DNA of 53,717 nt from a virus (lineage: Duplodnaviria; Caudoviricetes): IMG/VR virus record IMGVR_UViG_3300042997_001874, positions 1 through 53,717 of that record; one strand, given 5' to 3'. This document shows, piece by piece, positions 4,838 to 51,719 of the stretch; within the stretch, counting starts at the first letter, position 1; each line of letters opens with the position of its first letter. The notes under the pieces are model-generated. The model made no database searches and was not told the origin of the DNA. It was given only the letters and a program-made list of their open reading frames with translations. The translations under genes and the position numbers were made by a program.

Positions 4838-5251
4838 ATGAAACCCAGCGAACTAAAATCATTTATTAAAGAAGCAGTTAGAGAAGCTATCCAAGAGGAA
4901 CTAAAAGATATCCTTTTGGAAGCAGTCCGTGCTCCTAAATCACCAATTCAGGAAACTTATCAAGGAACCCCCATTGGAGTTGGGGGAACGGGAGTTACTA
5001 ATACAACACTATCCTCTAATGGAACTACTTCATTAACCTCACAAAAATCAGCTACCGAAAAAAGAGCTATGATGGAAAGTATTATGGGAGATATGCGAAG
5101 AGGACAAGATACTCTTAACTTTACTACTCAAAATATAGCAGCTAATACTCTACAAATAACCCCGGGTATGAATACCTCAGGAGATGGGTCAAAATTACCA
5201 GAGGGTAATGTTGGTTTAGATATGATTATGGGATTAATGGGCAAGAAATAA
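4838..5251 (+). CDS. Hypothetical protein with an MKxSELKxxIKE leader
   Basis: N-terminus MKPSELKSFIKEAVREAIQEE is shared with ORFs 22974 and 38030. Confidence 0.55.
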   Translation: MKPSELKSFIKEAVREAIQEELKDILLEAVRAPKSPIQETYQGTPIGVGGTGVTNTTLSSNGTTSLTSQKSATEKRAMMESIMGDMRRGQDTLNFTTQNIAANTLQITPGMNTSGDGSKLPEGNVGLDMIMGLMGKK

Positions 5252-5652
5252 TGGCAACCCAAATTATTCCTGCACTAAATCCAATAGATAGAAGTAAAAG
5301 AAATGCTATAGGATTTACTTTACCTTTTTATAATGCACAACCCTTTACTTCAAACTATACAACCCAACAAGCCCTTAAGAATAATATCATCAATTATATG
5401 ATGACTAATAAAGGAGAACGTTGTTTAAATCCTAATTTTGGGGCTGATTTAAGAAGGCAAGTATTTGAAGCTATGCAACTAGGAGAAACAACAGGTTTAA
5501 CTGATCTTATTTCAACTCTTCTAACTAACCAATTCCCCCAGATCAATGTAATTAGTGTTACTTCAGATCCTGACCCTAGTCAAAACTATGTAAATATCCA
5601 AATAGCATATAGTTTTCAAAGTCAAGTGGAGGTACTTAATGCTAGTATATAA
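5251..5652 (+). CDS. gp25: Baseplate wedge subunit, gp25/GPW family
   Basis: ALKNNIINYMMTNKGERCLNPNFGADL matches the gp25 signature (T.KGER...P.FG); directly precedes gp6. Confidence 0.85.
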   Translation: MATQIIPALNPIDRSKRNAIGFTLPFYNAQPFTSNYTTQQALKNNIINYMMTNKGERCLNPNFGADLRRQVFEAMQLGETTGLTDLISTLLTNQFPQINVISVTSDPDPSQNYVNIQIAYSFQSQVEVLNASI

Positions 5653-5657
5653 TTAAA

Positions 5658-7502
5658 ATGGCTATTAAAAGAAATTTAACATACTTAAATAAAGACTTTA
5701 CTGAGTTTAGGAGTAGTTTAATTAACTATTCTCAAACTTATTTTCCTACTACTTACAATGACTTCAGCCCATCATCCCCAGGTATGATGTTAATTGAAAT
5801 GGCTTCGTATGTGGGTGATGTAATGTCTTTTTACTTAGATAATCAATATCAAGAAACTTTTTTACAATATGCTCGCCAAGCAAATAATGTATTTGATTTA
5901 GCTTATATGTTTGGATATAAACCTAAAGTAACAGGTGTGGCAATGGCTGATATTGATTTTTTTCAAAGAGTACCAGCCTCAGGTAGTACTTTTGCTCCTG
6001 ATTTTAGATATGCCTTAATAGTATCCGCTAATTCTTCTATTCAATCTAGCCTAAATAATAATACAAGTTTTTTAGTAGAAGATCCCGTAGATTTTACAGT
6101 TTCCTCTTCGGGTGATCCAACTGAGATTACAATATATGCTACTGCGGCTGGTAATCCCTCAGAATATCTTTTAAAGAAACCCCGTAAAGCCATCTCAGCA
6201 ACAGTTAATACTACAACTTTTACATTTACTACTCCTCAAGAGTTTGCTACCGTAAATCTTATAGATAACGATATTATAGGTATTTTAGATATAGTAGATT
6301 CGGATGGTAATGAATGGTATGAAGTAGATTATTTAGCTCAGGAAATGATCTATAAATCTATTAAAAATGCTAACCCAAATGATCCTAATTATTATACAGA
6401 TGGCTCAAATACTCCATTCTTACTTCAATTAGAACAAGTTCAAAGAAGATTTGTAACCCGTGTTATAAATGAAACTACTACCCAATTACAATTTGGTGCA
6501 GGCACAACAGCTGATACCGACGAAGAAATTGTACCTAATTCAAATAATGTAGGTTTAGGTTTACCATTTGAAAAAGATAAGTTAACAGCCGCATATTCAC
6601 CAACAAACTTTATATTTAATAACACTTATGGTATTGCCCCTTCAAGTACTACTTTAACTGTAAGATATCTAACAGGTGGTGGAATTAGTGCTAATGTTCA
6701 AGCTAATACTTTAACAACATTTAATGGTACTTTAAACTTCACTACCTATAATCTATCAGGGGCTCAACAATACTTTGATTCATTTGCAGTAAATAATCCT
6801 AAAGCAGCTTCAGGAGGGCAGGATGGGGATACGCTAGAGGAAATAAGACAAAATGCTTCCTCAAATTTTGCTACCCAGCTCCGTAACGTAACTCAAGATG
6901 ATTATTTAGTTAGAGCATTAGCTATGCCCTCAAAATTCGGAGTTGTTTCTAAAGCCTATATTGAACCTACTAAATTACAGAATGTAGGACAAGGTGAAAT
7001 AAATACTACTTTAGATTTATATGTTCTTTCTTCAAATAATTTAAATCAGTTAACTACTGGTTCAGCAGCCTTAAAACAGAATCTATCTACTTATTTATCT
7101 CAATATAGAATCATAGGTGATACAATTAGTATTAAAGATGCTTTTATTGTAAATATTGGGGTTGAGTTTGATATTATTACTTTACCCGAATATGTTAATA
7201 ATGAGGTATTAACTAACTGTATTTCGGAGCTACAAGCATACTTTGCAATTAGTGAATGGCAAATAAATGAACCTATTATTTTAAGAGAATTATATATATT
7301 ACTTGATAGAATAGAGGGGGTTCAAACAGTTAAAAACATAACTATCTTAAATAAAGCAGGTGTTGGTAATGGTTATTCTCAATTTGCCTACGATGTTCAA
7401 GGAGCTAATATAGGAGAAGTAATTTACCCCTCAATTGATCCTATGATCTTTGAAGTAAAATACCCTCAAAGTGATATTCGTGGTAGGGTAGTACCTTTAT
7501 AA
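5658..7502 (+). CDS. gp6: Baseplate wedge subunit gp6 / baseplate J-like
   Basis: KDFTEFRSSLINY, NDFSPSSPGMMLIEMASYVGDVMSFYLD, LAYMFGYKP, ASGGQDGDTLEEIR, RNVTQDDY. Confidence 0.88.
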   Translation: MAIKRNLTYLNKDFTEFRSSLINYSQTYFPTTYNDFSPSSPGMMLIEMASYVGDVMSFYLDNQYQETFLQYARQANNVFDLAYMFGYKPKVTGVAMADIDFFQRVPASGSTFAPDFRYALIVSANSSIQSSLNNNTSFLVEDPVDFTVSSSGDPTEITIYATAAGNPSEYLLKKPRKAISATVNTTTFTFTTPQEFATVNLIDNDIIGILDIVDSDGNEWYEVDYLAQEMIYKSIKNANPNDPNYYTDGSNTPFLLQLEQVQRRFVTRVINETTTQLQFGAGTTADTDEEIVPNSNNVGLGLPFEKDKLTAAYSPTNFIFNNTYGIAPSSTTLTVRYLTGGGISANVQANTLTTFNGTLNFTTYNLSGAQQYFDSFAVNNPKAASGGQDGDTLEEIRQNASSNFATQLRNVTQDDYLVRALAMPSKFGVVSKAYIEPTKLQNVGQGEINTTLDLYVLSSNNLNQLTTGSAALKQNLSTYLSQYRIIGDTISIKDAFIVNIGVEFDIITLPEYVNNEVLTNCISELQAYFAISEWQINEPIILRELYILLDRIEGVQTVKNITILNKAGVGNGYSQFAYDVQGANIGEVIYPSIDPMIFEVKYPQSDIRGRVVPL

Positions 7503-7512
7503 TTAAAAAACC

Positions 7513-17854: not shown

Positions 17855-20395
17855 ATGGAAAAACAAATTTTAAGTGAAGAGTTCATTCGCATGCAAAGGC
17901 TTGCGGGGATTGAAATTCAAGCACAAGAACCCATATTAGAAGAAATTTTACTAGAAGCTTTTATTGAAATTTACTGTTTAAAAAATAATTTATTATTAGA
18001 AAGTCTTGACGAATCTCTAATAGGTAAATTAAAAGATAAAATTAAGAAACTTAATATAAAACCTACAATAGGTCTTGTTGCCTCTATGTTAAAAGGGTTA
18101 AAAAATGCTTTAACTGATGAGGGGTACCAAAAAATTATAAAAATAGTTAAAGATTATGATGGACCTAAAAATATATCTCAAATAAAAGATTATCTTATAA
18201 AAAATCTTGATATACCTAAGGAAAAATTAGACGAAAAAATATTTACAAATAAAAAAGGAAATCCTAATACTTTATCAAGATCAATACTTTTTAATTTAAT
18301 ATTTATTATTCTTTTTAATTTAACTTCTAGTTCATTCTTATCCCAAGCTCAATCCAGCATGGATAAATTTGATGCTCCTATAGAAAAAGAAATTTCAGTA
18401 AAAGATGCTACTGAATTAGAATTAGGTGATTCTACTATAAATGCTCTTGAAAAAATAAGTGATGAAGTTAATACACCAATAGGGGGAGATACCGGAGGAG
18501 ATACCGGGGGAGATATCGGAAATAATTCAGTAACTGTTGATGACACTGGAAATGTTATTAAAGTGGGTTTTGATACAGGAGAATTTGAAATTGGAGATGT
18601 AGATAAAGTTGCTAAAAAAGTAGCTGATGAAATTATAAAAAAAGCTGGAGGTAAAACAATTGTAAAAATTGATTTAGAAGTAGAAGGTCTGATATCAAAT
18701 ACACCTGGAGAAGGAGATAATAATCCTAATGGGCCTGATAAAACGGGATTAGCTGAAAAACGCTTAGAAGTTGCTAAAAAAATAGCTGATGAAGTAAAGC
18801 TAGAGCTTGAAAAAAAATATTCTGGGATTAAAGTTAGCATTAAGGATGGAGGTACTAATGTAAATAATACTGGGGAAGAAGTAGAAGTAGGTTCTAAAGA
18901 AGCAAAAGATAAGGAAGCAGCATCTTTTACTATTTTAGATATAGAAACAGAAAAAGAAACAACAATAGATACACCCGATAGTCCTTTAACTTATTTTAGA
19001 AGACCTAAAGATTTAATGCCTGATGGTAACAAATATTATACTATATTAGGATATTTCTTACCATTAATTACAAATGATAAACAACCTTCAAAAGAATTTA
19101 TGAAAATTCTTAATATGAAAGAAGGAGATGTTATTAATGATAGTTTTATTAATAAAAAAATTGAGGAACTTCGTACTCAATATCCCGAAGGTAGTCCTAA
19201 AGTTAAAGAAGCAAAAAAAGCAATACAAATTTTATCTTGGGCACAAAAAGTTAAAAAGAATCCTAAATCTATTGGAGAATTTATAAAAAATTTAGATCCA
19301 AAAATTAATATTCCTTGGGAAAAACGTGTACTTCTTAGACCTGGTGAAAAAGGCAAAGCTGCATTTACTGGGGGTTCTAAAACCACTCAAACTCCGACTC
19401 CGGGATCTCAAGCTCAGGATAGGCTAAGGACAGGCGGCCGGAGTACTCCTAATCCTACACCCAATGATTTACGTGATTTAGGTGAGATTAGGTTAGCTAA
19501 TATATATGAAAATTTACTTTTTGAAGCACAAGCATCAGAATGGAAATCTCTCCCAGATTATAATGAATCTACTGCTAAAAGCAATTTAGGTGAACTAGTT
19601 CCTTTATATGTTTATATTTGGGATATAGGAGATAACGGAGCAATAAAATATGTATCTGGTATAAATGATGATGGTAGTCAAGCTAAAAATGTCCCCTATA
19701 AATTAAGTTGGGAAAAATTTACAACTAAATACCCAGTCCTTGATAAAAAAACAAATGATTATCTTTTTAATGTAAAACCTTCAGAAGATCCTAAAAAACA
19801 AGGTGAACCTAGTAAGTCTAGCAGTAAATCAGATAATATTCCTGTTAAGTTTGATAAAGAAACAGATAAAACAAAGAATACATCTGAAACTAATAGGATA
19901 ATTACGGCTATTAATAATAATTCTAGTATTAAAACGGCTCTAAGTAAAATAGATAATGTAGAAGAATTTAAACAGTTAATCTTAATTTTACTTTTAGATA
20001 AACTTCCAGTATACAAGGATAATAGACCGGCTCTAAGAACAGCACTTTCAAAAATACAAGCTAGAATTCAACTTCGTAATCAAAAGGGACAATTTATTAA
20101 ACTTCAAGAAGAGGATGCTTCTGATGTAATTAGGCTTGAAGATCTATTAGATGATTCTGCTGCAACTCAATTAAGAAATGAGCTTAAAAATATTAATACA
20201 GAAGAAGAAATAATACAAATAATTGTAAGAGCTATTATTCCTTATTTGAACCCTAATTTAAAAAATAGTACCCAAAGCTTAAAACAAGCCATTATTAGAG
20301 CTCAGGCGGATTTTGATAAAATGTCAAAGTCTTCGGGTGATATAGATTTAAAAGAGCTTTTTGTGAAAGCACTTAGGGAATCATCAAGTCGGTAA
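17855..20395 (+). CDS. Large hypothetical protein with a scaffold-like N-terminal motif, one TM segment and a possible OmpA-like domain
   Basis: FIRMQRLAGI at the N-terminus; ILFNLIFIILFNL hydrophobic stretch; FDTG...VEGLIS...LAEKR resembles OmpA C-terminal motifs. Confidence 0.5.
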   Translation: MEKQILSEEFIRMQRLAGIEIQAQEPILEEILLEAFIEIYCLKNNLLLESLDESLIGKLKDKIKKLNIKPTIGLVASMLKGLKNALTDEGYQKIIKIVKDYDGPKNISQIKDYLIKNLDIPKEKLDEKIFTNKKGNPNTLSRSILFNLIFIILFNLTSSSFLSQAQSSMDKFDAPIEKEISVKDATELELGDSTINALEKISDEVNTPIGGDTGGDTGGDIGNNSVTVDDTGNVIKVGFDTGEFEIGDVDKVAKKVADEIIKKAGGKTIVKIDLEVEGLISNTPGEGDNNPNGPDKTGLAEKRLEVAKKIADEVKLELEKKYSGIKVSIKDGGTNVNNTGEEVEVGSKEAKDKEAASFTILDIETEKETTIDTPDSPLTYFRRPKDLMPDGNKYYTILGYFLPLITNDKQPSKEFMKILNMKEGDVINDSFINKKIEELRTQYPEGSPKVKEAKKAIQILSWAQKVKKNPKSIGEFIKNLDPKINIPWEKRVLLRPGEKGKAAFTGGSKTTQTPTPGSQAQDRLRTGGRSTPNPTPNDLRDLGEIRLANIYENLLFEAQASEWKSLPDYNESTAKSNLGELVPLYVYIWDIGDNGAIKYVSGINDDGSQAKNVPYKLSWEKFTTKYPVLDKKTNDYLFNVKPSEDPKKQGEPSKSSSKSDNIPVKFDKETDKTKNTSETNRIITAINNNSSIKTALSKIDNVEEFKQLILILLLDKLPVYKDNRPALRTALSKIQARIQLRNQKGQFIKLQEEDASDVIRLEDLLDDSAATQLRNELKNINTEEEIIQIIVRAIIPYLNPNLKNSTQSLKQAIIRAQADFDKMSKSSGDIDLKELFVKALRESSSR

Positions 20396-23330: not shown

Positions 23331-23331
23331 A

Positions 23332-38029: not shown

Positions 38030-38785
38030 ATGAGAATATCTGAATTAAAAAAAGCCATCCGCGAAATGATCGTAAGCGAGTTAAACGAAGAGGAAAGGAT
38101 TGTTAAAAAAGGAACCCCAATGCCAACAGATGTACAAGTCGGTGATACTTTAGCAGTAGTTAAAGCAGACGAGGCACTTAATGAAATGGCTAAAATCGCA
38201 GGCGATCTAAAAGCAGCAATCGAAAAAGTAATCGAAAAAAATAAAGACGCTGAAAAGAAAGACGTTCGTAAGGCTATTAAAACAGACAACGAAGTTCAAG
38301 CTGCACTAGGACCTGATGATGATTTATTCGATAACCAACTTAACAAATTTATCGATCTAGTAAGAGGCGAAAGAGAAGTTGGACAACGCGGACGTAAAGC
38401 AGATCCAAACAAACCAGCTAAAGAGCCTAAAGAACCAGGAAGGCGTGGTCGCCCCAAATCAGCAAATCTTGCTGCCAAGAAAAAAGACGAGAAGGTAAAA
38501 ACATTCTCAATGACTAAAAAATATTATTCTGATAGCGAAGACCAAGACGGACCATCCGATTTGGAACTACGTAAACTAGCTGGTTCAGGTGGTAAACTTG
38601 AAAAAGGTAAAACAGCTCAACTCCGTGCTCAAGAAAAAACTAAATTAGTTAAAGCATTCCTAAAGGATATGAGAGATGCTGGGGTAGTAGATAATGCTAA
38701 CCGTGTCTTAGATAAAGACAAGTACGCTACAGAGTGGTCAAAAGCCAAAATCGAAATCGAAGATAAGGTATCTAAGCTTAAATAA
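38030..38785 (+). CDS. Basic protein with a leader and AT-hook-like motifs (putative DNA-binding head protein)
   Basis: MRISELKKAIRE...ELNE leader; QRGRK and GRRGRPK. ATG 38030 is preferred over TTG 38024. Confidence 0.55.
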   Translation: MRISELKKAIREMIVSELNEEERIVKKGTPMPTDVQVGDTLAVVKADEALNEMAKIAGDLKAAIEKVIEKNKDAEKKDVRKAIKTDNEVQAALGPDDDLFDNQLNKFIDLVRGEREVGQRGRKADPNKPAKEPKEPGRRGRPKSANLAAKKKDEKVKTFSMTKKYYSDSEDQDGPSDLELRKLAGSGGKLEKGKTAQLRAQEKTKLVKAFLKDMRDAGVVDNANRVLDKDKYATEWSKAKIEIEDKVSKLK

Positions 38786-40946: not shown

Positions 40947-42836
40947 ATGGCTGATACTAGTTTATTTTCCCGATTAAGAAGACTCTTTTCAACTGATGTA
41001 ATCATCAGAAACGAGGGTGGAAGTCAGCTAAAAGTAGTTGATACGGATCATATCCAAACCAGTGGTGAATTCCAAACAAATTCTCTAGTAGATAGGTTTG
41101 GAAAAATCTACACTAACCCAGCCTCTACATCTCTTTTAGGTTCACAATTCAACATACAATATCAGTATCTAAGAACTTATCTTTATAGTGATTACGATGT
41201 AATGGATACCGATGCTATTGTAGCTTCTGCCCTTGATATTATCTCGGATGAATGTACTTTAAAGAACGATATGGGAGAGGTACTTCAAATTAGAAGTAGC
41301 GACGATGATATTCAAAAAATCCTTTATAATCTATTTTACGATGTACTTAACATTGAGTTTAATCTATGGTCTTGGGTTCGTCAAATGTGTAAATACGGTG
41401 ATTTTTTCTTAAAGCTAGAGATCGCAGAAAAATTTGGTGTATATAACGTAATTCCTTATACAGCATACCATATTCAAAGACGCGAAAACTTTGACATGGA
41501 AAACCCAGCAAAAGTTCAATTCCTTTATTCTCCCGATGGATACTATACGGGTGGTTCAGGTTACTATGCTACTCCAAATACTAAACCATCTGAAAATCAG
41601 ATTGTATTTGATAACTACGAGGTAGCTCACTTCCGCTTATTAACGGATGTAAATTATCTTCCCTATGGTCGTTCATATCTTGAACCAGGACGTCGCTTAT
41701 TTAAGCAATATGTGTTGATGGAGGATGCTATGTTGATCCACCGTATTGCTCGTGCCCCAGAAAAACGTATTTTCTATATCAACGTAGGTAATATTCCACC
41801 ACAAGAGGTTGATGCATTTATGCAAAAAACTATCAACACAATGAAGAAAACTCCATTGATGGATGAAAAAACAGGTGAATATAACTTAAAGTACAACATG
41901 CAGAATCTACTTGAGGATTTCTACATCCCAGTAAGAGGCAATGACACTGCAACTAAAATAGACACTACAAAAGGTCTAGAATACAATGGTATCGAGGACG
42001 TAGCTTACCTAAGAGATAAACTATTTGCTGCCCTTAAGGTACCTAAAGCGTTCATGGGCTATGAAAAAGACTTAACTGGTAAGGCTACGTTAGCGGCTGA
42101 AGATATTCGTTTTGCTCGCACCATTGACCGCATTCAACGAATCCTATTATCTGAGCTATACAAGATTGCTTTAGTACACTTGTACTCACAGGGATATGAT
42201 GGTGAGCAATTAACAAACTTTGAACTTAAGTTAACTACTCCATCAATCATTGCAGAGCAAGAAAAAGTTGCTCTACTAAAAGAAAAAGTAGCCCTAGCTA
42301 AAGAAATGTTGGATACTAAAATCATCCCATCAGATTGGATTTATGATAACGTATTCCAATTCAGTCAGGACCAATACGATGAATACCGAGATTTAATTAT
42401 CCAAGACCAAAAACGCGCATTCCGTAACCAACAAATAGCTGAAGAAGGTAATGACCCGATCGAAACTGGCCGTTCATACGGAACACCACACGATCTAGCT
42501 TCTTTATATGGTAGAGAAAGATACGCTGATAATTCAGTACCAGATGGGTACGATGAAAAAGCTGAATTAGGTCGCCCTAAAGAAAAAGCATCTAATATAG
42601 ACACTCAGGATAACCCATTGGGTAGAGATCGTTTAGGTAAAAAAGATATGAAAAAAGACGACCAAGAAGGTACAGGTAGAACTCAATTTAAAGGTGGTTC
42701 ACCATTAGCGCTAGAAGGTACTAAACTTGAACTATCTAAAAATAGAACATTATTGGAAGGTCTTCACAAAAAACTAGTATTCCAAAGCGATAAAGCTAAA
42801 GAATCGTTATTAGATGAGTCTAATCTGACTGATTAA
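40947..42836 (+). CDS. gp20: Portal protein (T4 gp20-like)
   Basis: PYGRSYLE, LMEDAMLIHRIARAPEKRIFYINVGN, LEDFYIPVRG, LFAALKVP, EDIRFAR. Confidence 0.95.
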   Translation: MADTSLFSRLRRLFSTDVIIRNEGGSQLKVVDTDHIQTSGEFQTNSLVDRFGKIYTNPASTSLLGSQFNIQYQYLRTYLYSDYDVMDTDAIVASALDIISDECTLKNDMGEVLQIRSSDDDIQKILYNLFYDVLNIEFNLWSWVRQMCKYGDFFLKLEIAEKFGVYNVIPYTAYHIQRRENFDMENPAKVQFLYSPDGYYTGGSGYYATPNTKPSENQIVFDNYEVAHFRLLTDVNYLPYGRSYLEPGRRLFKQYVLMEDAMLIHRIARAPEKRIFYINVGNIPPQEVDAFMQKTINTMKKTPLMDEKTGEYNLKYNMQNLLEDFYIPVRGNDTATKIDTTKGLEYNGIEDVAYLRDKLFAALKVPKAFMGYEKDLTGKATLAAEDIRFARTIDRIQRILLSELYKIALVHLYSQGYDGEQLTNFELKLTTPSIIAEQEKVALLKEKVALAKEMLDTKIIPSDWIYDNVFQFSQDQYDEYRDLIIQDQKRAFRNQQIAEEGNDPIETGRSYGTPHDLASLYGRERYADNSVPDGYDEKAELGRPKEKASNIDTQDNPLGRDRLGKKDMKKDDQEGTGRTQFKGGSPLALEGTKLELSKNRTLLEGLHKKLVFQSDKAKESLLDESNLTD

Positions 42837-42855: not shown

Positions 42856-42871
42856 ATAAATCCTAATAGGA

Positions 42872-43738
42872 ATGAATATCAAACACTCGAAATATAAAAA
42901 TACGGGCATTCTATTTGAATTGCTGGTACGCCAAGTAACAGCTGACACCCTTAACGGTGATCAATCTCCCGCATTAAATATTATTAAGAAATTTTTTGTT
43001 AAAAGCGAATTAGGTAAAGAACTCAAATTATATGAGACTTTAACTAAAAGTAAAAAAATAAACGAATCTCGTTCTAATTTACTTATCCAAACTCTATTAG
43101 AGTCATCTAAAAAGCTTAACAAGAAAACGCTTAAAAGAGAAAAATATAATCTTATTAACGAGATTAAAAAACACTATAATTTAGATGAGTTTTTTAAGAC
43201 AAAACTTCCTAACTATAAAACACAAGCTGCTTTTTATACACTAGTTGAAGCACAAAGCTCAATAGAGATGATCAGTCCTGATCAAATTGTAGCTAATAAG
43301 TATAGTATTTTAGAGCACTTAACACTGGGACCAGTTAACCCAGAAAAAGTAAAAGACGAGGTTTTACAAGAATTCCAAACATACGATAAGGACATAAGAA
43401 TGTTAACCTATAAAATTTTATTAGAGAAATTTAACGGTAAATATTCAGATTTACACGAATCACAAAAAGAGGTACTTAAAGAATTTATCACATCAGTTGA
43501 TTCAACCCCCAAGCTAAGAACATTCTACAATAATAGAATCCAGCAACTTAAAGAAGAGTTAGCTATTATTAGCAATACTATAGCAGATAAAGCTGTTCAA
43601 ATTAAGTTAAACGAGGTGTTACCTCTTATAGTTGAGATAGAAAAAAATCAACCCATCAGAAACGAAAATATAGTTGATTTACTCCAATACTGCGAACTCG
43701 TAGAAGAACTTAAATCAGCTCATGGGTCCTCTATTTAA
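42872..43738 (+). CDS. Hypothetical head-module protein (possible prohead core component)
   Basis: Lies between portal and protease; helical; KHSKYKNTGILFELLVRQ. Confidence 0.55.
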   Translation: MNIKHSKYKNTGILFELLVRQVTADTLNGDQSPALNIIKKFFVKSELGKELKLYETLTKSKKINESRSNLLIQTLLESSKKLNKKTLKREKYNLINEIKKHYNLDEFFKTKLPNYKTQAAFYTLVEAQSSIEMISPDQIVANKYSILEHLTLGPVNPEKVKDEVLQEFQTYDKDIRMLTYKILLEKFNGKYSDLHESQKEVLKEFITSVDSTPKLRTFYNNRIQQLKEELAIISNTIADKAVQIKLNEVLPLIVEIEKNQPIRNENIVDLLQYCELVEELKSAHGSSI

Positions 43739-44297
43739 CAAAATTCGGGAAATAGTTAGAGGTAGAAAGTTTATTCTTACCCCTACACCCGGAGGCGAAG
43801 AAAACGAATCAGACGTAACATATGTTCCTGATTTTGAAATTCTTTTAGCAGACATTAATCGCGCTTTAGAAACTCTTAGAGCAATTGCTACTGATCCCCA
43901 GGTAATAAATGACCCTAAATTTGGAGAAATATATAACCAATTTAGAGTTTTAAGAAATAATCTTAGAACCCACATGCGCACCAAATACCCTTCAGAATAC
44001 CAAAAGATTAAAGGTATGTTTGAAATGAGTGGTACTGGTGGTGGTGCCGGAGCCGGATCATTCTCTCCTGGAACTGGTGGTCAATATGCTACCCCATTTG
44101 CTTTTAAAAAGATGGGAAAACAAGAATTACCTGAAGCCTCCCTAGGTGCATCATTAGGTAAGGGACCCAAAGCAGGTCCTAAAGGAGTAACAAATAACTA
44201 CTATACTAAAAACTTTAAGTATAAACTGGTTAATCCCGTAAAATTAGCGGCCCAATCTAAGGCAGTAGATACTAAATACCTCTGGGGAAAACCTTAA
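43722..44297 (+). CDS. Hypothetical head-module protein
   Basis: ORF track; Gly-rich segment after MFE. Confidence 0.5.
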   Translation: MGPLFNKIREIVRGRKFILTPTPGGEENESDVTYVPDFEILLADINRALETLRAIATDPQVINDPKFGEIYNQFRVLRNNLRTHMRTKYPSEYQKIKGMFEMSGTGGGAGAGSFSPGTGGQYATPFAFKKMGKQELPEASLGASLGKGPKAGPKGVTNNYYTKNFKYKLVNPVKLAAQSKAVDTKYLWGKP

Positions 44298-44305
44298 TAT
44301 TTATA
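44298..44305 (+). promoter_or_regulatory. Putative late promoter TATTTATA
   Basis: Recurrent octamer 3 nt before ATG 44309. Confidence 0.6.
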
Positions 44306-44308
44306 GGT

Positions 44309-44557
44309 ATGTATAAGTATAAACTAAAGACTAGAATCAACGAAGCGGATCCTAAAAGAATAGAGTTCCAAAATCAACGCATTGATGCTTTCAAAGCTAT
44401 TGAATCTAGATTAAACAGTTTATATCCAGCAATTGATAGAGCAAAAGACGAAACAATAGCATTCTATAAAGAAAAACCAGAATCCTTTGCTGTGGTAAAA
44501 CCTACAGATCTAATTATGGATTATTTAAACGACATCGAAAAATTATTAAATCAATAA
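44309..44557 (+). CDS. Small hypothetical protein with a leader ending RINE
   Basis: MYKYKLKTRINE-A. Confidence 0.55.
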   Translation: MYKYKLKTRINEADPKRIEFQNQRIDAFKAIESRLNSLYPAIDRAKDETIAFYKEKPESFAVVKPTDLIMDYLNDIEKLLNQ

Positions 44558-44560
44558 AAT

Positions 44561-44824
44561 ATGGCAAATACTGCTTTTAATACAAACGGAACTATTTCTA
44601 CTACTAGTGTTACTGGCTCATTTGCTGGTTTTACTGTAGTATCAGGTTCAGCAACTTTTACAGGTCTTAAAGATTATTCAAATAATAATGTATCTACAGG
44701 CAGTATAGCTCTATGGACAGCACTCCCAGTAGGTACTACAGTACCACTATATATAACAAGTGCTTCTTTATCATCAGGAGCTGTAGTATTTTACCCAGTT
44801 TCAACTGTAATCCCACAACAATAA
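44561..44824 (+). CDS. Small S/T/G-rich beta protein, possible capsid decoration
   Basis: 87 aa, three [S/T]GS motifs, almost no charged residues. Confidence 0.45.
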   Translation: MANTAFNTNGTISTTSVTGSFAGFTVVSGSATFTGLKDYSNNNVSTGSIALWTALPVGTTVPLYITSASLSSGAVVFYPVSTVIPQQ

Positions 44825-44825
44825 T

Positions 44826-45500
44826 ATGAAAACCCTACAAGAACAATTCAATCTAATCCAGGAAGGAAAAGGACATAAAGATATGTTCTTAAAATCCGCT
44901 CGTAGATTATTCCCAGAATATTTAACAAACTATGCCTCCTATAATGAGGTTACTACCATTTTAAAGCAAAGAGGTGTTTTAAGTGAAATAATTGTAGGTG
45001 GTGGTATTGTTACTCAACGCACTTTTGATCCATTTAAGGCATTTGATGCATACGTAAACGAAGAATACACAGTAGCTGGTGGCGTTGGTAAAACATATGC
45101 TGCCCAACAATTAAACCCAGTTTCTGCTCCTAAATCCCAAGGTGCTCAAACTACTAAATCGGTAGAAAAGAATCTATCTAAAGAGGTAGCAGATCGCCAG
45201 GAAATGGCTGGCTATGATTATAGTAATGAAAAAAATATTGACAACGTATATGGTCAAGAATTTTTAGAGGGATACTACGCGGAGATGAAAGATCCTAAAA
45301 ATGTTGATAAAACAATAGATGAATTAAAAGACATTGTTAGAAAAAATTTAGTTAAAAATTCTTCATACTATGTAGAGAATGCCGCATTTGGTATTAAAGG
45401 GATTGGTTATACAAAATCAGCACCTGGTTTAGGTGAAGGAGAACCCGCTAAAGGCAAATACAAAGCCAGCGGATATGGTGATTTACCTAAGAAAAAATAA
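44826..45500 (+). CDS. Hypothetical head-module protein
   Basis: MKTLQEQFNLIQE leader, reminiscent of the T4 internal-protein targeting sequence MKTYQEFIAE. Confidence 0.55.
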   Translation: MKTLQEQFNLIQEGKGHKDMFLKSARRLFPEYLTNYASYNEVTTILKQRGVLSEIIVGGGIVTQRTFDPFKAFDAYVNEEYTVAGGVGKTYAAQQLNPVSAPKSQGAQTTKSVEKNLSKEVADRQEMAGYDYSNEKNIDNVYGQEFLEGYYAEMKDPKNVDKTIDELKDIVRKNLVKNSSYYVENAAFGIKGIGYTKSAPGLGEGEPAKGKYKASGYGDLPKKK

Positions 45501-46108
45501 TGAAACAAGTATTAATTGAAACCCAAGCGTTTCAGGTTAATCCTGTTCAATTAACTGAAGGTACTAAATCTCCAGCAGGCAACCCCATTGTAGAAGGTAT
45601 TTTAGCTACGGCTGAAGTTAAAAACGGAAACGGCCGTTACTACAAAAAAGATCTATGGCAACGCGAAATAGATAGATACATGGAAGTTGTTAAAGAAAAC
45701 AGAGCAACAGGTGAGCTAGACCATCCAGACTCCTCTATCATCAATCTTAAAAACGTATCTCATATTATCCGAAGTATCTTTTGGGATGGAGACCACGTAG
45801 TAGGAAAGATAGAAATACTACCAACTGTTTCAGGTAATATTTTAAAAGCATTAATTGAAAATAATGTTCAAGTAGGTGTTTCTTCTCGCGGTATGGGTTC
45901 TTTAAAACAAATGAGTGAAGGTACACTAGAGGTACAAGACGACTTTGAACTTCTATGTTGGGATTTTGTTTCTACACCTTCCAATCCAGGTTCATATATG
46001 CACTTAGTGCGCGAAGGAAAAGAATACAACACAAGTAACCATTACAGTAAAGCAAGTGGAATTTTAACAGAAATTCTATGCGCTAAGGGCACCTGCCCTA
46101 TTATATAA
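45500..46108 (+). CDS. gp21: Prohead core protease (T4 gp21-like)
   Basis: KNGNGRYY, GELDHP, NVSH, GVSSRGMGS, WDFVSTPS. Confidence 0.95.
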   Translation: MKQVLIETQAFQVNPVQLTEGTKSPAGNPIVEGILATAEVKNGNGRYYKKDLWQREIDRYMEVVKENRATGELDHPDSSIINLKNVSHIIRSIFWDGDHVVGKIEILPTVSGNILKALIENNVQVGVSSRGMGSLKQMSEGTLEVQDDFELLCWDFVSTPSNPGSYMHLVREGKEYNTSNHYSKASGILTEILCAKGTCPII

Positions 46109-46289: not shown

Positions 46290-47513
46290 ATGGCGAATAG
46301 AAACCTATTGAAAGAAGCTATTGCTGATGCTAAATCTGTTAAAGAAGCAGCCATCGCAAATGCTAAAGCCGCTCTTGAGGAAGCTTTTACACCATACCTA
46401 AAGGAAAAATTTTCTGCCAAATTAGCAGAAATGGAAACCGAAGAAGGTATGTATTATGAAGACGACAAAGAGATGGAAGAAAACTACAGCGAAGGAGAAG
46501 TAGAAGAAATGTCAAACTATACCGAAGAAAAACGTACTGAAAAGATGCGTGAAAAACCTGAAGTAGAAGAGATGGATCTTGACGAACTTTTAGCTGAACT
46601 CGATGAGGAAATGAGTAAAGAAAAAGAAATGGAAGAAACTTTAAACGAAGCTGAAGAAGAAACCGAAGAGGAAGAATCTGAAGAAGTTGAAGGTGAAGAG
46701 GACGATGAAATCGACCTTGAAGACATGACTGAAGACGAGCTTAAAGACTTAATCGAAGACGTAATCGCAGACATGGTTAGAGCTGGTGAGCTCGAAGCCG
46801 GTGAAAAATTCGAAGACGAAGAAGACGACGAAGACGACGAAGAAATCGATTTTGAAGAAGAAGACGAAGAAGAAATAGTATCTGAAAGAAAGCACTACGG
46901 TGGTAGTAAAGAGAATATTCCTTCTGCTAAGCGTGGTAAAATTAAAAAAGACACCGCTGAAGAAGAAGGCATTGCTGACTATGAAAGATCTAAGAAAAAG
47001 ATGGACGAAGGAGTAATAGATAAGTTAAAAGATCTTTACACTGATAAAGAATTACTTTCTAAAATCATTACTATTGACGGTGAAAAAGTATCTATTCAAG
47101 ATCTTATTAATTTAGTAAAATCAGGAGCTCCGGCTCGTGAAGGTATGAATAGAACTGAAGACGAAATGGATGAAATGAAGAAAGAAATTGAAGAATTAGC
47201 TTCAACACTTTCTGAAACTAAACTTTTAAACGCTAAACTTCTTTATACTAACAAAATCTTCAGAGCTAAGAATTTAAACGAAACACAAAAAGTAAAGGTA
47301 TTGGAAGCTTTTGATAAAGCTGCTTCCGTAAGAGATGCTAAACTTATCTACGAGACATTAACCACAGTTAAGGAAACTAAAACTGCTGTTACTGAATCAA
47401 TGAGAGGTATGGCCTCAAAAGCGGCAGGTATGGCTCCAGAAAAGAAACCAATCCTTGAGGTAAACGATCAATTCGCTAGATGGCAAATCTTAGCGGGTAT
47501 CAAAAGAAATTAA
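46290..47513 (+). CDS. Prohead scaffold/core protein (gp22-like)
   Basis: Very acidic coiled-coil protein between the protease and major capsid genes; LLKEAIADAK, LLNAKLLYTNK. ATG 46290 is preferred over GTG 46278. Confidence 0.8.
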   Translation: MANRNLLKEAIADAKSVKEAAIANAKAALEEAFTPYLKEKFSAKLAEMETEEGMYYEDDKEMEENYSEGEVEEMSNYTEEKRTEKMREKPEVEEMDLDELLAELDEEMSKEKEMEETLNEAEEETEEEESEEVEGEEDDEIDLEDMTEDELKDLIEDVIADMVRAGELEAGEKFEDEEDDEDDEEIDFEEEDEEEIVSERKHYGGSKENIPSAKRGKIKKDTAEEEGIADYERSKKKMDEGVIDKLKDLYTDKELLSKIITIDGEKVSIQDLINLVKSGAPAREGMNRTEDEMDEMKKEIEELASTLSETKLLNAKLLYTNKIFRAKNLNETQKVKVLEAFDKAASVRDAKLIYETLTTVKETKTAVTESMRGMASKAAGMAPEKKPILEVNDQFARWQILAGIKRN

Positions 47514-47537: not shown

Positions 47538-49304
47538 ATGTCACAAGTACAACAATTACTCGAGTCTGCAGCTTCCGGTTGGAAGAATATGCAGTCTGAC
47601 GCGGCTAAATTAGCTGCAAAATGGGATAGGACAGGTTTACTTGAAGGACTCCGTACGGAGACCGACAAGAACAACATGTCTTTAATCCTAGAAAACCAAG
47701 CCAAGCAACTAGTAGTAGAGCAATCTTCTGTAGGTGGTGGTTCAGGTTTCGGTAACTTCACAGTCGGCACAGGTGCCGAATGGGCTGGTATCGCTCTTCC
47801 ATTAGTACGTAAGGTATTCGGTCAAATCGCTGCTAAAGAATTCGTTTCTGTACAGCCTATGAACCTACCTTCCGGTCTTGTATTCTTTTTAGACTTCCAA
47901 TACGGAACTACTAAGAATCCATTCTCTACTGGAAAATCACTCTATGGTAACACTGGTTCAGCTAATGGTAACTACCCATTCTCTACAAACCCTAATAACT
48001 TAGGTGAGAATAACAACGGTGGTCTATACGGTGCTGGAAGGTTTACCTATTCAACTAACCAATTCTCATCTTCATTACTAGGTCTTATATCTGGTTCGTC
48101 TGCAGCTCCTGCAAATGCTTCCACTGGTAGTCTTACAACCGCTACTTGGGCAGAATTAAATTTTGATTCAGATATGTCAGCCTCTATTGTTGGTGGTACA
48201 GTACTGAAAGCTACTATTTCTGCTTCTGCATTATCTAGCTACGATGCTGATGCTGTAAGAGGATTTGTATTAGTATCAGGTTCAGCTACAACTGAGACTG
48301 GAGTAAATGGTTTAACTGTAGCTACTGCATTACCACAATTTACTACTTTAGATTACACTAACCAAAGAATTTCTTTCTTCTTTACTGCTTCCGCAGCTGT
48401 TATTGCAGCAACCGGTTCTTACACTGCGTTTTACAATAAGGCAACTACAATGAGCCCATACAACGTAGGTGATTTCGAAGCTGGAAACGCATTCGCTGCT
48501 CCCAACGCTGAAAGCTCAACTGAAATTGTAATTCCAGAAATCAACATCCAACTTCAGTCACAAGCAATTGTTGCTAAGACTAAGAAGTTAAAGGCTGTTT
48601 GGACTCCAGAATTCGCCCAAGATCTTAATGCCTACCAGGCACTTGACGCAGAAGCTGAAGTAACAAACATCATGAGCGAGTACATTTCTCTTGAAATCGA
48701 CCTTGAAATTCTTGACATGTTGATCGAAGACGCAGCTGCTGGTACTGAGTACTGGACTGTATTGAACAACGGTGTTTACAATCCTAGTAATACTAACGGA
48801 TTTGATTTCCCAACTTCAAGTACAATGACCGGTTACTACAATACTCAAGGCCAGTGGTTCCAAACCCTTGGTACTAAGATGCAGAAACTTTCTAACAAGA
48901 TTCACCAGTTAACCCTTCGTGGTGGTGCAAACTTCTTAGTATGTTCCCCAACTGTAGCTACAGTAATTGAATCAATCCCAGGATTCGCTTCAAACTCTGA
49001 TGGCTCTGCAGACAAAATGGAATACGCGTTTGGTGTACAGAAAGCTGGTCAATTGAACAGCCGCTATACAGTTTACAAGAATCCTTACATGACTGAAAAC
49101 ACGATCCTTATGGGATTCCGTGGTACTCAGTTCTTGGAGGCCGGTGCTGTATTTGCTCCTTACATTCCTTTGATCATGACTCCTCTTATCTACGATCCCG
49201 ATACCTTCACTCCAAGAAAAGGTCTCTTGACTCGCTACGCTAAGAAGATGCTACGTCCCGAATTTTATGGTAAAATCTTCGTTTCTGGTCTTAACAGCCT
49301 CTAA
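47538..49304 (+). CDS. gp23: Major capsid protein (T4 gp23-like)
   Basis: LENQ, PLVRKVF, VSVQPMNLPSGLVFFLDF, KLKAVWTPEFAQDL, EIDLEIL, APYIPL, TPRKGLLTRY. Confidence 0.95.
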   Translation: MSQVQQLLESAASGWKNMQSDAAKLAAKWDRTGLLEGLRTETDKNNMSLILENQAKQLVVEQSSVGGGSGFGNFTVGTGAEWAGIALPLVRKVFGQIAAKEFVSVQPMNLPSGLVFFLDFQYGTTKNPFSTGKSLYGNTGSANGNYPFSTNPNNLGENNNGGLYGAGRFTYSTNQFSSSLLGLISGSSAAPANASTGSLTTATWAELNFDSDMSASIVGGTVLKATISASALSSYDADAVRGFVLVSGSATTETGVNGLTVATALPQFTTLDYTNQRISFFFTASAAVIAATGSYTAFYNKATTMSPYNVGDFEAGNAFAAPNAESSTEIVIPEINIQLQSQAIVAKTKKLKAVWTPEFAQDLNAYQALDAEAEVTNIMSEYISLEIDLEILDMLIEDAAAGTEYWTVLNNGVYNPSNTNGFDFPTSSTMTGYYNTQGQWFQTLGTKMQKLSNKIHQLTLRGGANFLVCSPTVATVIESIPGFASNSDGSADKMEYAFGVQKAGQLNSRYTVYKNPYMTENTILMGFRGTQFLEAGAVFAPYIPLIMTPLIYDPDTFTPRKGLLTRYAKKMLRPEFYGKIFVSGLNSL

Positions 49305-49360: not shown

Positions 49361-49362
49361 AA

Positions 49363-49370: not shown

Positions 49371-49405
49371 CACGGTAATTATTTATTTAACTTATTAATT
49401 AATAT

Positions 49406-50137: not shown

Positions 50138-50148
50138 ACCTTCTTACA

Positions 50149-50156
50149 TATTTATA
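50149..50156 (+). promoter_or_regulatory. Putative late promoter TATTTATA
   Basis: Recurrent octamer upstream of the neck gene. Confidence 0.6.
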
Positions 50157-50166
50157 ACGAAAACGT

Positions 50167-51381
50167 ATGGCAAACATTCCAATTTGGCCTGGGTCCTCTT
50201 CATTTGCTGCCGTATCAGCCTCATTTTATAATACTCCATCAACAGGTAGTTCACCTACTTCATTTGGGTTTTATGATAATGACTCTGCTTTTAAAACAGA
50301 CGCAAATAAGGTAGCTAATTTTTGTTCTAGGCGTTTAGGATATCCTATTGAAAACGTAGAACTACAGGATTTAAACTTTTGGACTGCCTTTGAGGAAGCA
50401 ACAACTATCTATGGTAACGAATTATATGCTTACCAAATTAGAGAAAACATGCTTAACTTGGAGGGTTTACCTATATCTACCCCCACATTAAACAATACTC
50501 AAATTACCCCTAATATGGGTAATATTATCCGTATCTCAGAACAATATGGAGAGACAGCCGGGGTAGGAGGAAATACCAATTGGTATTCAGGTTCGGTTAT
50601 TTTAACTGGCTCAGTTCAGGATTATGATTTAGATGTTTGGGCCCAACAAAATGGCATTTCAGGAAGTAATTTAGAGATCCAAAACGTATTTTACCACGGT
50701 GTTCCCGCTTCAGCTACCTACTACTATGGAGGTGCTGTAGGTTTAGGATCAGGATTTGGTGGTTTCTTTGGCGCTTTAGGTGGTGTAGCAGGTGCGGGTG
50801 GTATAGGTTATTTACAGAACCCCCTAGCATACAACGTAGCGGCAATTCAGCAAGTAGAATTAGCGGATGAAATTCTTTTATCTGGTTATAGTTTTCAACT
50901 TATAAACAATAAGCTAAGAATATTCCCTTGCCCCACAGAAGGTGATACAGGAACTAATTACTATTTCCAATACCTACTTAAAAGCGAACGTTTAGGGAAT
51001 TCATTAGTTTCCGGAAGTGGAGTTAGCGGTAGTGGATTAATCACTAACGTCTCAAACGCTCCATATGGCAACCCAGTTTATTCTCAAATAAATTCAATAG
51101 GGCGTTCCTGGATTTTTGAATATACTTTAGCACTTTCAAAAGAAATGTTAGGGTATGTTCGCAACAAATATTCACAAATTCCGATTCCGGGTGCTGAAGT
51201 TACTTTAAACGGGGATACTTTAACCTCATCTGCAGCTACTGATAAAGAGGCTTTAATAACAAGGTTAAGAGAATATTTCAATGAAACCTCTCGCCAATCC
51301 ATGCTTGAAAGAAGATCATTAGAAGCAGATTTTTCTCAAACTGAACTGAATAAAAGCCCAATGACAATCTTCATAGGATGA
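50167..51381 (+). CDS. gp13: Neck/head-tail adaptor protein (gp13-like)
   Basis: RRLGYPIENVEL, WIFEYTLALSKEMLGYVRNKY, IPGAEVTLNG. Confidence 0.8.
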   Translation: MANIPIWPGSSSFAAVSASFYNTPSTGSSPTSFGFYDNDSAFKTDANKVANFCSRRLGYPIENVELQDLNFWTAFEEATTIYGNELYAYQIRENMLNLEGLPISTPTLNNTQITPNMGNIIRISEQYGETAGVGGNTNWYSGSVILTGSVQDYDLDVWAQQNGISGSNLEIQNVFYHGVPASATYYYGGAVGLGSGFGGFFGALGGVAGAGGIGYLQNPLAYNVAAIQQVELADEILLSGYSFQLINNKLRIFPCPTEGDTGTNYYFQYLLKSERLGNSLVSGSGVSGSGLITNVSNAPYGNPVYSQINSIGRSWIFEYTLALSKEMLGYVRNKYSQIPIPGAEVTLNGDTLTSSAATDKEALITRLREYFNETSRQSMLERRSLEADFSQTELNKSPMTIFIG

Positions 51382-51719
51382 TAAAGTTTGCTGATATATT
51401 AACTGAGATATTAAACACCTACGAGGTAGATGTTATAATAAAATCTAATAAAAACCAAAATATTAGCGATATATTGGATCAAATCCGTGCTCTAAGAAAG
51501 ATCACCACGGTACGAAATATAACCCCACCAGACTATCCACAAAAAGAGAATATTGAATACACTCGTATTAATATTAAATTTTTAAGCAAAACAGGTAAAC
51601 CAGAAGAAGATATAAAAGAATTTGAACAAGAAATTCTTACCTCAGATCAGGACGATAACCTAAAAATACTAGGGGTTATAGGAGCTAATTTTGATATAAA
51701 TACTTTAAGACGTTTATAG
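51378..51719 (+). CDS. Hypothetical protein with an MIKFADILTE leader
   Basis: Shared leader; inserted between the neck genes. Confidence 0.55.
   Translation: MIKFADILTEILNTYEVDVIIKSNKNQNISDILDQIRALRKITTVRNITPPDYPQKENIEYTRINIKFLSKTGKPEEDIKEFEQEILTSDQDDNLKILGVIGANFDINTLRRL

Follow-up and report, generated by a model that had tools for sequence, protein, structure and literature searches.

Why should proteins with unrelated bodies begin with the same short peptide? The question is raised by a 53.7-kb contig, IMG/VR record IMGVR_UViG_3300042997_001874, which was analyzed over its whole length of 53,717 nucleotides (hereafter the window). The contig comes from a far-T4 (distant T4-type) myophage and encodes a portal protein, an S77 prohead protease, a scaffold protein and a gp23-type capsid protein. 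Its G+C content is ~34%, and every long open reading frame (ORF) is on the + strand. The closest isolates, as judged by the capsid protein, are Flavobacterium phage immuto (51.5% identity), Microcystis phage Mel-JY01 (45%) and Rhodothermus phage RM378 (32%). A preliminary description of this DNA had grouped a number of N-termini into three leader families ending in [IL]xE, and had proposed that these leaders send 15 or more effectors into the phage head. All of the N-termini that it quoted were found on the + strand at the positions reported. We estimate a probability of roughly 60% that the leaders are propeptides that direct proteins to the prohead in the manner of the T4 capsid targeting sequence (CTS) and are then cut off by the prohead protease. 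This estimate rests on sequence comparison, which also provides a link to the capsid beyond that earlier account: one leader family is, as judged by profile searches, homologous to the C-terminal tail of the scaffold protein.

Four families of N-terminal leader

Classification with leader hidden Markov models (HMMs), which is partly circular for the window because its own leaders were among the seeds, recognized clear N-terminal leaders on 10 window genes. Four carry leader A (consensus MIKLxxLLxE, 10 residues), three leader B (MKxSELKxxIKE, 12-20 residues), two leader C (MSNFDLxKYLAEGKLLKE, 12-18 residues) and one leader D, a family that was absent from the original list and was added by this classification. 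All are on the + strand.

Leader A in the form MISLIQLLKE (A model 0.0015) opens the gene at 22174..22977, whose labeling as a Zeta-like kinase was confirmed: the product is a Zeta-toxin-like P-loop kinase by its matches to Pfam Zeta_toxin (4.6e-15) and PDB 1gvn_B (7e-4). The gene at 33784..34299 (MIKLSDILKE, A model 1e-4) had been called a protein kinase. Similarity to a protein-kinase N-lobe is indeed present, but the matches are weak (PHROG kinase 9.3e-5; PDB TTK kinase, E 0.027). The gene at 51378..51719 (MIKFADILTE, A model 3e-4) lies downstream of a neck/head-completion gene. The fourth leader A protein (32838..33164, MIKLLQLLTE) is confidently predicted to be a four-helix bundle by an AlphaFold2 (AF2) model. 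The model (mean predicted local distance difference test score, pLDDT, of 91.5) has a confident four-helix body at residues 18-107, with the leader forming a separate helix ahead of it (residues 2-13, pLDDT ~66). A Foldseek search of the PDB with this model gave nothing at E ≤0.001, just generic helical bundles.

Leader B is carried by 4838..5251 (MKPSELKSFIKE; B model independent E-value, i-E, 5e-8), the body of which has no known family, by 22974..23330 (MKTSELKYIIKE; B model 8e-6) and by 38030..38785 (MRISELKKAIRE MIVSELNE; B model 1e-8), which is directly upstream of the terminase gene. The two leader C genes, 29350..29709 (MSNFDLKKYLAEGKLLKE, acidic body; C model 2.6e-12) and 29730..30089 (MSNFDLRKYLAEGKLLKE; C model 3.2e-14), have bodies that are weakly similar past the leader, and their leaders differ at five codons, four of them synonymously. 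Leader D, a candidate mimic of the scaffold tail, begins an 846-residue protein (17855..20395, MEKQILSEEFIRMQRLAGI...; D model 9.3e-9) for which sequence searches of Pfam, PHROG and PDB found no match.

The N-terminus at 26955..27410 (MGFDVSKWNKQRYLAE), which had been assigned to leader C, is missed by the C model. By eye, however, it resembles immuto MENNFDIHKWQAKFLKE, a C variant adjoining the protease, and we regard it as a probable leader C variant. The segments at 28112, 28417 and 30100 that had been thought similar to leader B received no support from the leader models. The firm count is thus 10 leader genes and one probable one, to which may be set three head-module proteins (43722, 44309 and 44826) with [IL]xE sites of their own; the figure of at least 15 effectors was therefore too high.

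Confinement of the leaders to N-termini

Of 61 N-termini in the window, 19 contain an [IL]xE whose Glu lies at residues 7-13, as compared with 9.1% of internal windows (7-residue) of the same proteins, three doubtful small ORFs having been excluded before the count. For relatives, 1,788 ORFs were assembled from 80 IMG/VR loci, one immuto locus and the window. ORF calling in the loci was crude (first ATG, at least 45 residues, overlapping ORFs dropped), and BLAST clustering of the residues after position 30 of each ORF gave 847 body clusters. When each body cluster was represented by a single protein (580 proteins), [IL]xE was enriched 2.19-fold at the N-terminus (113 occurrences versus 51.6 expected). 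Control motifs at the same place were unenriched ([IL]xD 0.80, VxE 0.96, [FMYW]xE 0.51, [AGS]xE 0.77), as was Glu alone (0.98).

Direct comparison of N-termini gave a similar picture. Among the 59 window proteins of at least 80 residues, 12 pairs of N-terminal 10-mers scored 20 or more with BLOSUM62, whereas the same test at 25 internal offsets gave a mean of 0.48 pairs and a maximum of 2. In G003, a 113-kb syntenic relative, there were 81 such pairs (internal mean 2.3), in immuto 31 (4.1), in G001, a distant 182-kb relative, 7 (5.8), and in T4 26 (9.4). T4 served as a control of the method, and its top pair consists of two ORFs starting MKTYQEFIAE; several other top T4 pairs have N-termini of the form NYxKIYNxLI, which we take to be homing-endonuclease paralogs. 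Matches to the leader models likewise favored N-terminal over internal positions, by 64:5 for leader A, 78:16 for B and 29:1 for C.

It might be argued that short N-termini rich in Lys, Glu, Ile and Leu look alike by chance in an AT-rich genome such as this one, in which [IL]xE does occur in about one internal 7-residue window in eleven (~9%). The pair counts for the window and for G003, the N-terminal preference of the leader models and the lack of enrichment of the compositional control motifs refute this explanation, to which we assign almost no probability. The leaders are real and are restricted to N-termini.

Modular exchange and selection at the peptide level

Across ~160 related IMG/VR loci, identical leader types are found on dozens of unrelated bodies. 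In the 1,788-ORF set leader A precedes 20 unrelated body clusters, B 14, C 13 and D 3. A Pfam scan of 34 representative cargo bodies (of 42, the other eight being genes already covered by the scan of the window) assigned no family to 32; one of the remaining two is a DUF6934 protein and the other an Fe/Mn superoxide dismutase. The superoxide dismutase domain begins at residue 31, following leader A and a 20-residue basic linker (L005:700-1401 and seven more loci), and all eight members of this cluster have leader A.

Orthologous bodies also differ in the leader they bear. Among the 21 aligned orthologs of 32838, 19 have leader A, one a B-like leader and one leader C. Glu10 is invariant, the leader junction falls immediately after it, and an indel then precedes the conserved body. 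A second set of bodies, 61-66% identical to one another, bears leader C (L040), D (L008) or B (immuto). Leaders can also be present or absent: in the window, the Cys-rich protein at 32212-32823 (phrog_7595 C-terminal domain) starts without a leader, and its G003 ortholog (L115:9088-9924, 48% identical) has a 21-residue N-terminal extension beginning with leader B.

As a separate observation, the body that bears B, C or D leaders (L040, L008, L087 and others) contains two long hydrophobic stretches and may be a membrane-active protein.

Eleven G003 genes start with MKKSELRQ[LI]IKE or near variants of it, and the DNA upstream of them differs. The codons of these leaders vary synonymously (Ser as TCA, TCT, AGC and AGT; Leu as TTA, CTA and CTT), and across the loci conserved leader residues are similarly specified by varied codons (Ser TCN/AGY, Leu TTA/CTN, Arg CGN/AGA). 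Synonymous codon use together with differing upstream DNA therefore indicates selection on the peptide. Column entropy is 0 at the Glu and reaches 2.3-2.6 bits one residue later, some positions being set by the search pattern. With a relaxed pattern in which P3 to P1 were left free, position 10 of leader A was Glu in 52 of 59 sequences and never Asp; position 8 was Ile or Leu in 52 of 59, and position 9 was free. The corresponding Glu was found in 35 of 40 B leaders (Asp in one), 13 of 17 C leaders and 9 of 11 D leaders. Leader A conserves L4, I/L7, L8 and E10 in addition to positions 2 and 3, and positions 5, 6 and 9 are variable.

The leaders are under peptide-level selection and are interchangeable at the Glu boundary. 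The modular character claimed for them is thus upheld by the range of unrelated bodies, by exchanges on orthologs exactly after the invariant Glu and by the presence of a T4-type S77 protease. Two other sources of shared N-termini were considered and rejected. Paralogy of whole proteins is contradicted by the assignment of the bodies to different BLAST clusters and Pfam families and by the occurrence of different leaders on orthologous bodies; DNA-level repeats or mobile regulatory cassettes are contradicted by the differing upstream DNA and by the encoding of the same peptides in different codons.

Leaders that retain their Met are also found inside longer proteins as fusions, which fits their being cleavable junctions. 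Leader A is located near residue ~190 of ORFs of 339-349 residues that end directly before the protease gene (L121, L122, L134, L135 and L143), and among the proteins with such internal leaders are orthologs of the core protein encoded immediately ahead of the protease. Leader B is found within proteins that start with a D or C leader (L026, L035 and L025).

A 444-residue ORF in one locus (L076:1671-3005) has two internal D motifs (at approximately residues 228-244 and 256-277), each with an I-x-E after it, and may represent a polyprotein or a fusion of several genes.

Leader D and the scaffold tail

The scaffold protein of the window (46290..47513, + strand) has the N-terminus MANRNLLKE/A (a slash marks a candidate cleavage point) and an acidic middle, and ends in PILE/ followed by the C-terminal tail VNDQFARWQILAGIKRN (47460-47510). 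In an alignment of 32 sequences the scaffold end has the form PILE/VNDQFARWQxLAGIKK, with I388, E390, Q394, R397, W398, L401, A402 and G403 invariant. A model of the scaffold C-terminus only was searched against a larger set of translations (2,713 ORFs together with those of G001, immuto and T4). The best non-scaffold matches were D leaders, aligned over residues 2-20 with E of 6e-4 to 0.03; examples are MKPILNEQLARMQKLAGIITE (E 6e-4) and MKKQILSEQFRRMQKLAGIITE (E 0.011). The reverse model, constructed from nine D leaders, gave 66 non-N-terminal matches with i-E ≤1, and nearly all of the matches listed were scaffold C-termini.

The same confinement to protein ends was seen when IMG/VR was scanned at the DNA level with a degenerate pattern for RMQKLAGI, which gave at least 121 matches. 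Of the 121 matches listed, 119 were at a protein terminus: 94 at the extreme C-terminus, for the most part with scaffold-like surroundings (ASKA-G...KP..[IV]xE), and 25 at the extreme N-terminus, followed by [IL]xE; two were undetermined. Protease-type sites separate the tail from the rest of the protein in both settings, as a conserved [IV]xE ahead of the scaffold tail and as [ILV]xE after LAG in 9 of 11 D leaders. One locus encodes an 82-residue protein (L024:15245-15493) whose last residues resemble the scaffold tail (..MKKMQYLAGIIK-stop), which shows that small proteins other than scaffolds can have the tail at their C-terminus as well.

In phage P22 and, with the UL26/UL26.5 proteins, in herpes simplex virus (HSV), the scaffold is attached to the major capsid protein by its C-terminal tail, which is removed during maturation. 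The herpesvirus protease has this tail too and is anchored through it in the same way, and the tail is released by cleavage. The arrangement described here is similar in that a short terminal peptide is common to the scaffold and to another procapsid-bound protein, and in that a protease site lies between tail and body (PILE/tail in the scaffold, tail...ITE/body in the cargo). It differs in that the tail is at the N-terminus of many unrelated proteins, and here binding to the capsid is presumed by analogy.

Leader D also bears on whether the leaders have anything to do with the capsid. They could instead serve in oligomerization, in some other localization or in starting translation in a host without Shine-Dalgarno sequences, [IL]xE being incidental. 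Such a role would suit leaders that are AT-rich and helix-prone, the finding that A and C genes lack a late-type motif of their own (below) and the existence of orthologs without a leader. Nevertheless, a function at the RNA or DNA level is opposed by the synonymous variation, which includes both serine codon families, and by the differing upstream DNA. Moreover, the Glu is almost never replaced by Asp although P2 is free to vary, leader D and the scaffold tail are homologs, and leaders are found inside fusion proteins beside the protease gene. We regard a role unrelated to the capsid as improbable.

Cleavage-type sites of the head module

A protease of the kind expected to act on [IL]xE is encoded at 45500..46108 on the + strand. 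It is of the S77/T4 gp21 type (Pfam Peptidase_S77 1.3e-26; PHROG head maturation protease 2.3e-56), and has the N-terminus MKQVLIE/T, which could be aligned in 79 of 80 loci, and a second site, QLTE/G. In ~80 related head modules the N-termini of the protease, scaffold, capsid and core proteins hold Ile or Leu at P3 and Glu at P1, and P2 varies. The conserved forms are MKQVLIE/T and QL[THVL]E/G in the protease, M-x-NRDLLKE/A in the scaffold, MSQVQQLLE/S in the capsid protein, MKTLQ..LI[QK]E/GKG in the core protein 44826 and ..[IL]NE/ADP in 44309. T4 proteins can be read in the same way: gp21 MNEPQLLIE/T, gp22 MLKE/QLIAE/A, gp24 MAKINELLRE/S and ipII/ipIII MKTYQEFIAE/A (sequences from the T4 record).

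The [IL]xE sites that had been noticed at the N-termini of the protease, scaffold and capsid proteins are accordingly conserved across these modules, and those of 44826 and 44309 are conserved across relatives. The portal-protease interval of the window (43722..45500, + strand) comprises the head-module genes 43722, 44309, (44561) and 44826, of which 43722, 44309 and 44826 have conserved N-terminal [IL]xE sites (KIRE, RINE and MKTLQEQFNLIQE, respectively); the 44826-type N-terminus aligned in 73 of 78 matches. The gp23-type major capsid protein (47538..49304, + strand; Pfam Gp23 6.8e-75) has conserved xxE sites in its N-terminal segment (47538-47720), at LLE-9, LLE-36, xLE-52 and VxE-61 (invariant columns in 39 sequences). 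Its maturation cut is likely to be at VxE-61, which is non-canonical as compared with [IL]xE.

A derivation of leaders A-C from head-protein termini was considered and is unsupported, models of the scaffold and capsid N-termini having found none of them. Because leaders A-C lack likeness to these termini, their link to the capsid is through analogy and through their exchange with D.

A possible route into the head

A pathway can be proposed in which the tagged proteins would be made together with the head proteins and each would be held in the assembling prohead by its leader. Leader D would do so by mimicking the C-terminal tail that anchors the scaffold, and leaders A, B and C through other contacts. 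The S77 (gp21-type) protease would then cut after the Glu of the terminal [IL]xE, freeing the body inside the head, which it would probably leave with the DNA. Binding, cleavage, packaging, ejection and an effector role are properties that we infer for the tagged proteins, and that the cargo acts in host takeover or anti-defense is a guess. In comparison with the proposal of the preliminary description, the real, modular and peptide-selected leaders, the S77 protease and the [IL]xE sites of the head proteins are retained, and the number of effectors is not.

Entry into the prohead might, however, serve assembly only. The leaders would bring proteins into the prohead and be cut there, and the bodies would be accessory core or scaffold parts that are lost, by degradation or expulsion, before DNA packaging or in the course of it. 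Leader D's copying of the scaffold tail suits this explanation, as does the location of leader genes inside the head module of relatives, where two D genes lie between protease and scaffold (L145) and B genes lie right after the capsid gene (G003). Many bodies, too, are acidic and without a family, like pieces of an acidic scaffold. On the other hand, folded enzymes (superoxide dismutase, Zeta-like kinase) are among the bodies, as is a helical bundle with a confident fold, and cargo repertoires differ strongly among close relatives, unlike assembly parts. We consider a purely assembly-related function unlikely.

Cleavage might also take place without packaging, the leader being a propeptide that sets the activity of a protein until the late protease cuts it in the cytoplasm. 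A precedent is T4 gp21, which has the cleavage motif [IL]-x-E and which, when expressed alone, cuts a loop of a host CD-NTase, a cytoplasmic protein, at an LxE-type site (PMC12991175). The strong preference for Glu at P1 agrees with such a switch, and the Zeta-like kinase is a plausible candidate for control of this sort. A switch leaves unexplained why D copies a scaffold tail found just at protein termini and why four different leaders are exchanged on one body. In the AF2 model of 32838, furthermore, the leader is a separate helix that is not docked on the body. This explanation appears very improbable.

Several observations weigh against propeptides that target cargo to the prohead. T4 internal proteins are basic, unlike the acidic window cargo, in which 7 of 11 bodies have an isoelectric point of 4.1-6.1. 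Some cargo enzymes have obvious work in the cytoplasm, namely superoxide dismutase and the Zeta-like kinase beside replication genes. The leader is dispensable in some orthologs, as illustrated by 32212 and its G003 counterpart, and G001 encodes the protease yet has no shared leaders by the pair test. Models of the scaffold- and capsid-protein N-termini miss leaders A, B and C, the best match being 29730 at i-E 6.4, and the late-type motif is no more frequent upstream of A and C genes in the loci than in the background (3/59 A and 1/18 C genes with TATTTATA ≤45 nucleotides upstream; background 7.6%). Some ORF starts in the loci will be wrong because of the crude ORF calling. Cleavage alone would not prove packaging, since gp21 cuts a cytoplasmic host protein. 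Finally, literature searches found no virion proteome of a relative and, among the papers listed on virion mass spectrometry of T4-like phages, none that mentions superoxide dismutase or deals with this clade.

A more far-reaching version of prohead targeting, to which we give somewhat less than an even chance, is that aquatic far-T4 phages possess a multi-address cargo system. Interchangeable, cleavable tags, one of them a scaffold anchor moved to a new place, would load almost any protein into the head for delivery with the DNA, as a viral counterpart of encapsulin loading, and the cargo would include superoxide dismutase, Zeta-like kinases and possible membrane-active proteins.

Comparison with known systems

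The T4 CTS consists of the first 10 residues of IPIII, in which residues 4 and 7 function in targeting and residues 8 and 10 in processing, Asp10 blocking the latter; T4 gp21 itself carries LIE-9 (PMC9026906). The internal proteins of T-even phages are diverse, and the CTS alone is conserved (PMC3012670). The leaders resemble the CTS (IPII/IPIII, IPI, Alt) and the gp24 propeptide in being short N-terminal sequences of 10-20 residues that end in [IL]xE. A given leader is likewise placed on otherwise unrelated proteins in a phage that encodes a gp21-type S77 protease, and the positions kept in leader A (4, 7, 8 and 10) are those that are functional in the IPIII CTS, a match of pattern. By eye, the T4 gp24 start MAKINELLRE is near to leader A and MKTLQEQFNLIQE of 44826 resembles MKTYQEFIAE, peptides too short for statistics. 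The leader models found no match in T4 and are too short to establish homology with the CTS.

There are also clear differences from T4. At least four leader families are present side by side and are exchanged on the same bodies; at least 10 genes are tagged (10 in the window and, by the leader models, 12 in G003) as compared with a handful in T4; one leader is a copy of the scaffold C-terminal tail; leaders also join modules inside longer proteins; and some bodies are enzymes or acidic proteins. The host lineage is also distant, the nearest isolates infecting Flavobacterium and Microcystis. Thus, the proposed mechanism would be that of the T4 CTS, and what differs is the several swappable families, the number of tags, the scaffold-tail copy, the internal junctions, the range of bodies and the distant environmental clade.

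In the giant phages SPN3US and phiKZ, N-terminal propeptides of ejection and head proteins are cut after A/S/G-x-E by the gp245/gp175 protease, and the SPN3US paralogs gp53 and gp54 have an identical 15-residue N-terminus (MANFVKSKLARESVE) with cleavage motifs (PMC5694885). Common to both systems are propeptides on many proteins, head-internal in SPN3US/phiKZ, with cleavage after Glu by a gp21-related protease, a step that is predicted here. By eye and without statistics, the gp53/gp54 N-terminus resembles leader C (M-x-N-F...K...x-E at position 12). However, the SPN3US/phiKZ propeptides are mostly longer than 100 residues and have a small residue (A/S/G) at P3 rather than I/L, and the shared N-terminus is found between paralogs rather than on unrelated bodies. 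In phage P1 the N-terminal 30 residues of DarB suffice to send a reporter into the capsid (PMC9024508). DarB is a single protein, and those parts of that source that deal with it describe neither a shared leader family nor protease-site logic. In a limited check of the literature on the "capsid targeting sequence", the papers listed dealt with T4, P1, SPN3US, P22 and T4 engineering or defense and none of them with this clade.

The locus itself is a tailed-phage head module with protease, portal and terminase, and its likeness to encapsulins is one of analogy. Encapsulin cargo-loading peptides are short terminal peptides that send diverse enzymes inside an HK97-fold shell; they differ from the leaders in their usual C-terminal position, in direct binding to the shell, in the absence of proteolytic removal and in being non-viral.

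If prohead targeting by the leaders is correct, the T4 CTS would be the small end of a widespread modular form of cargo loading in environmental phages and not a peculiarity of T-even coliphages. There would be a readable address code with a plausible receptor logic in scaffold-tail mimicry, and the tags would predict from sequence which phage proteins are packaged and injected, and hence candidate early counter-defense or takeover factors. It would also explain the quick turnover of small late genes beside head modules, and the leaders would be natural tags with which foreign proteins could be loaded into the capsids of phages that infect non-model hosts. The clade is frequent in environmental viromes: 262 IMG/VR stretches contain the ferredoxin-like gene 33164 and more than 583 the clade prohead protease, in addition to the RMQKLAGI tags or tails counted above. 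The system could be tested directly in phage immuto, a cultured relative that bears all four leader types, the candidate leader genes of which begin at 24569, 25061, 102294, 103366, 103806, 111675, 112261, 113188, 117631, 118632, 123355 and 125241.

The late-type promoter-like motif

The leader genes had been described as mostly late-promoter genes. The window contains 14 exact copies of ATATTTATA, at 1956, 4825, 14399, 17830, 22150, 26924, 28395, 34503, 37998, 40922, 42847, 44297, 49362 and 50148, all on the + strand; 3.7 were expected, and none of 100 shuffles reached 14. With one mismatch the motif is at chance (81 versus 77.6), and only the exact motif is informative. Twelve of the 14 copies are just upstream of gene starts, which include the portal gene and the structural genes 14428, 42872 and 50167. 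The description thus holds in part: it applies to 4838, 17855, 22174, 26955, 28417, 38030 and 44309, each of which has the motif directly upstream; the other leader genes are further along co-directional gene strings.

In the loci, TATTTATA is found ≤45 nucleotides upstream of 16 of 38 B genes and 7 of 13 D genes, as compared with 121 of 1,587 other genes. Immuto has 30 motifs on the + strand and 15 on the - strand, and 24 of the 30 on the + strand are within 50 nucleotides of a gene start. An immuto D-leader gene amid nucleotide-metabolism genes has a late-type motif of its own. Because of the genes that it precedes, we infer that ATATTTATA is a late promoter, an assignment made from sequence context. 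On the opposite strand ATATTTATA corresponds nearly to the T4 late promoter TATAAATA. It is yet strictly on the coding strand in the window, in 14 cases of 14. A scan of 21-40 kb for sigma-70 promoters and terminators was at chance (69 promoter-like sites versus 67.5, and 11 terminator-like sites versus 11.2) and is therefore uninformative on operon limits.

Neighboring genes

Further genes of the window, all on the + strand, were assigned from Pfam and PHROG matches. They include a gp25-type (5251) and a gp6-type (5658) baseplate gene, a primase gene (20448), an exonuclease gene (21377), a T4-type large terminase gene (39357), the gp20-type portal gene (40947..42836; Pfam Portal_T4 6.5e-70) and a PhoH gene (49406). 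A SegE-type GIY-YIG homing endonuclease gene (17381-17824; Pfam 1.5e-25) separates the tail/baseplate block from the D-leader gene 17855.

The ORF at 23281-26346 combines a weak N-terminal match to a cytidylyltransferase-type nucleotidyltransferase (Pfam E 0.0086) with a C-terminal 5'-3' deoxyribonucleotidase (PHROG 4e-25), and its syntenic homolog in immuto is annotated as nicotinamide mononucleotide (NMN) adenylyltransferase (NadR). Its start is uncertain, the TTG at 23281 overlapping the preceding gene. Relatives of this ORF start M-x-LGEYLVNLLLEE, which ends in [IL]xE and is outside all of the leader families.

In the middle of the cargo cluster, a 57-residue gene product (29165-29338) matches the chlamydial histone H1-like protein Hc1 (Pfam 5.7e-8). 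It is without an A-D leader and might act in DNA condensation. Metabolic-looking genes without leaders (35449-37998) separate the cargo cluster from the terminase gene; they encode a flavin adenine dinucleotide (FAD) oxidoreductase, a cupin/cysteine-dioxygenase-like protein (PHROG 6e-35) and an AAA_28 kinase-like protein. At the end of the window, a collagen-repeat, tail-fiber-like gene (53167-53715; Pfam Collagen 1.1e-12) runs past the end of the contig.

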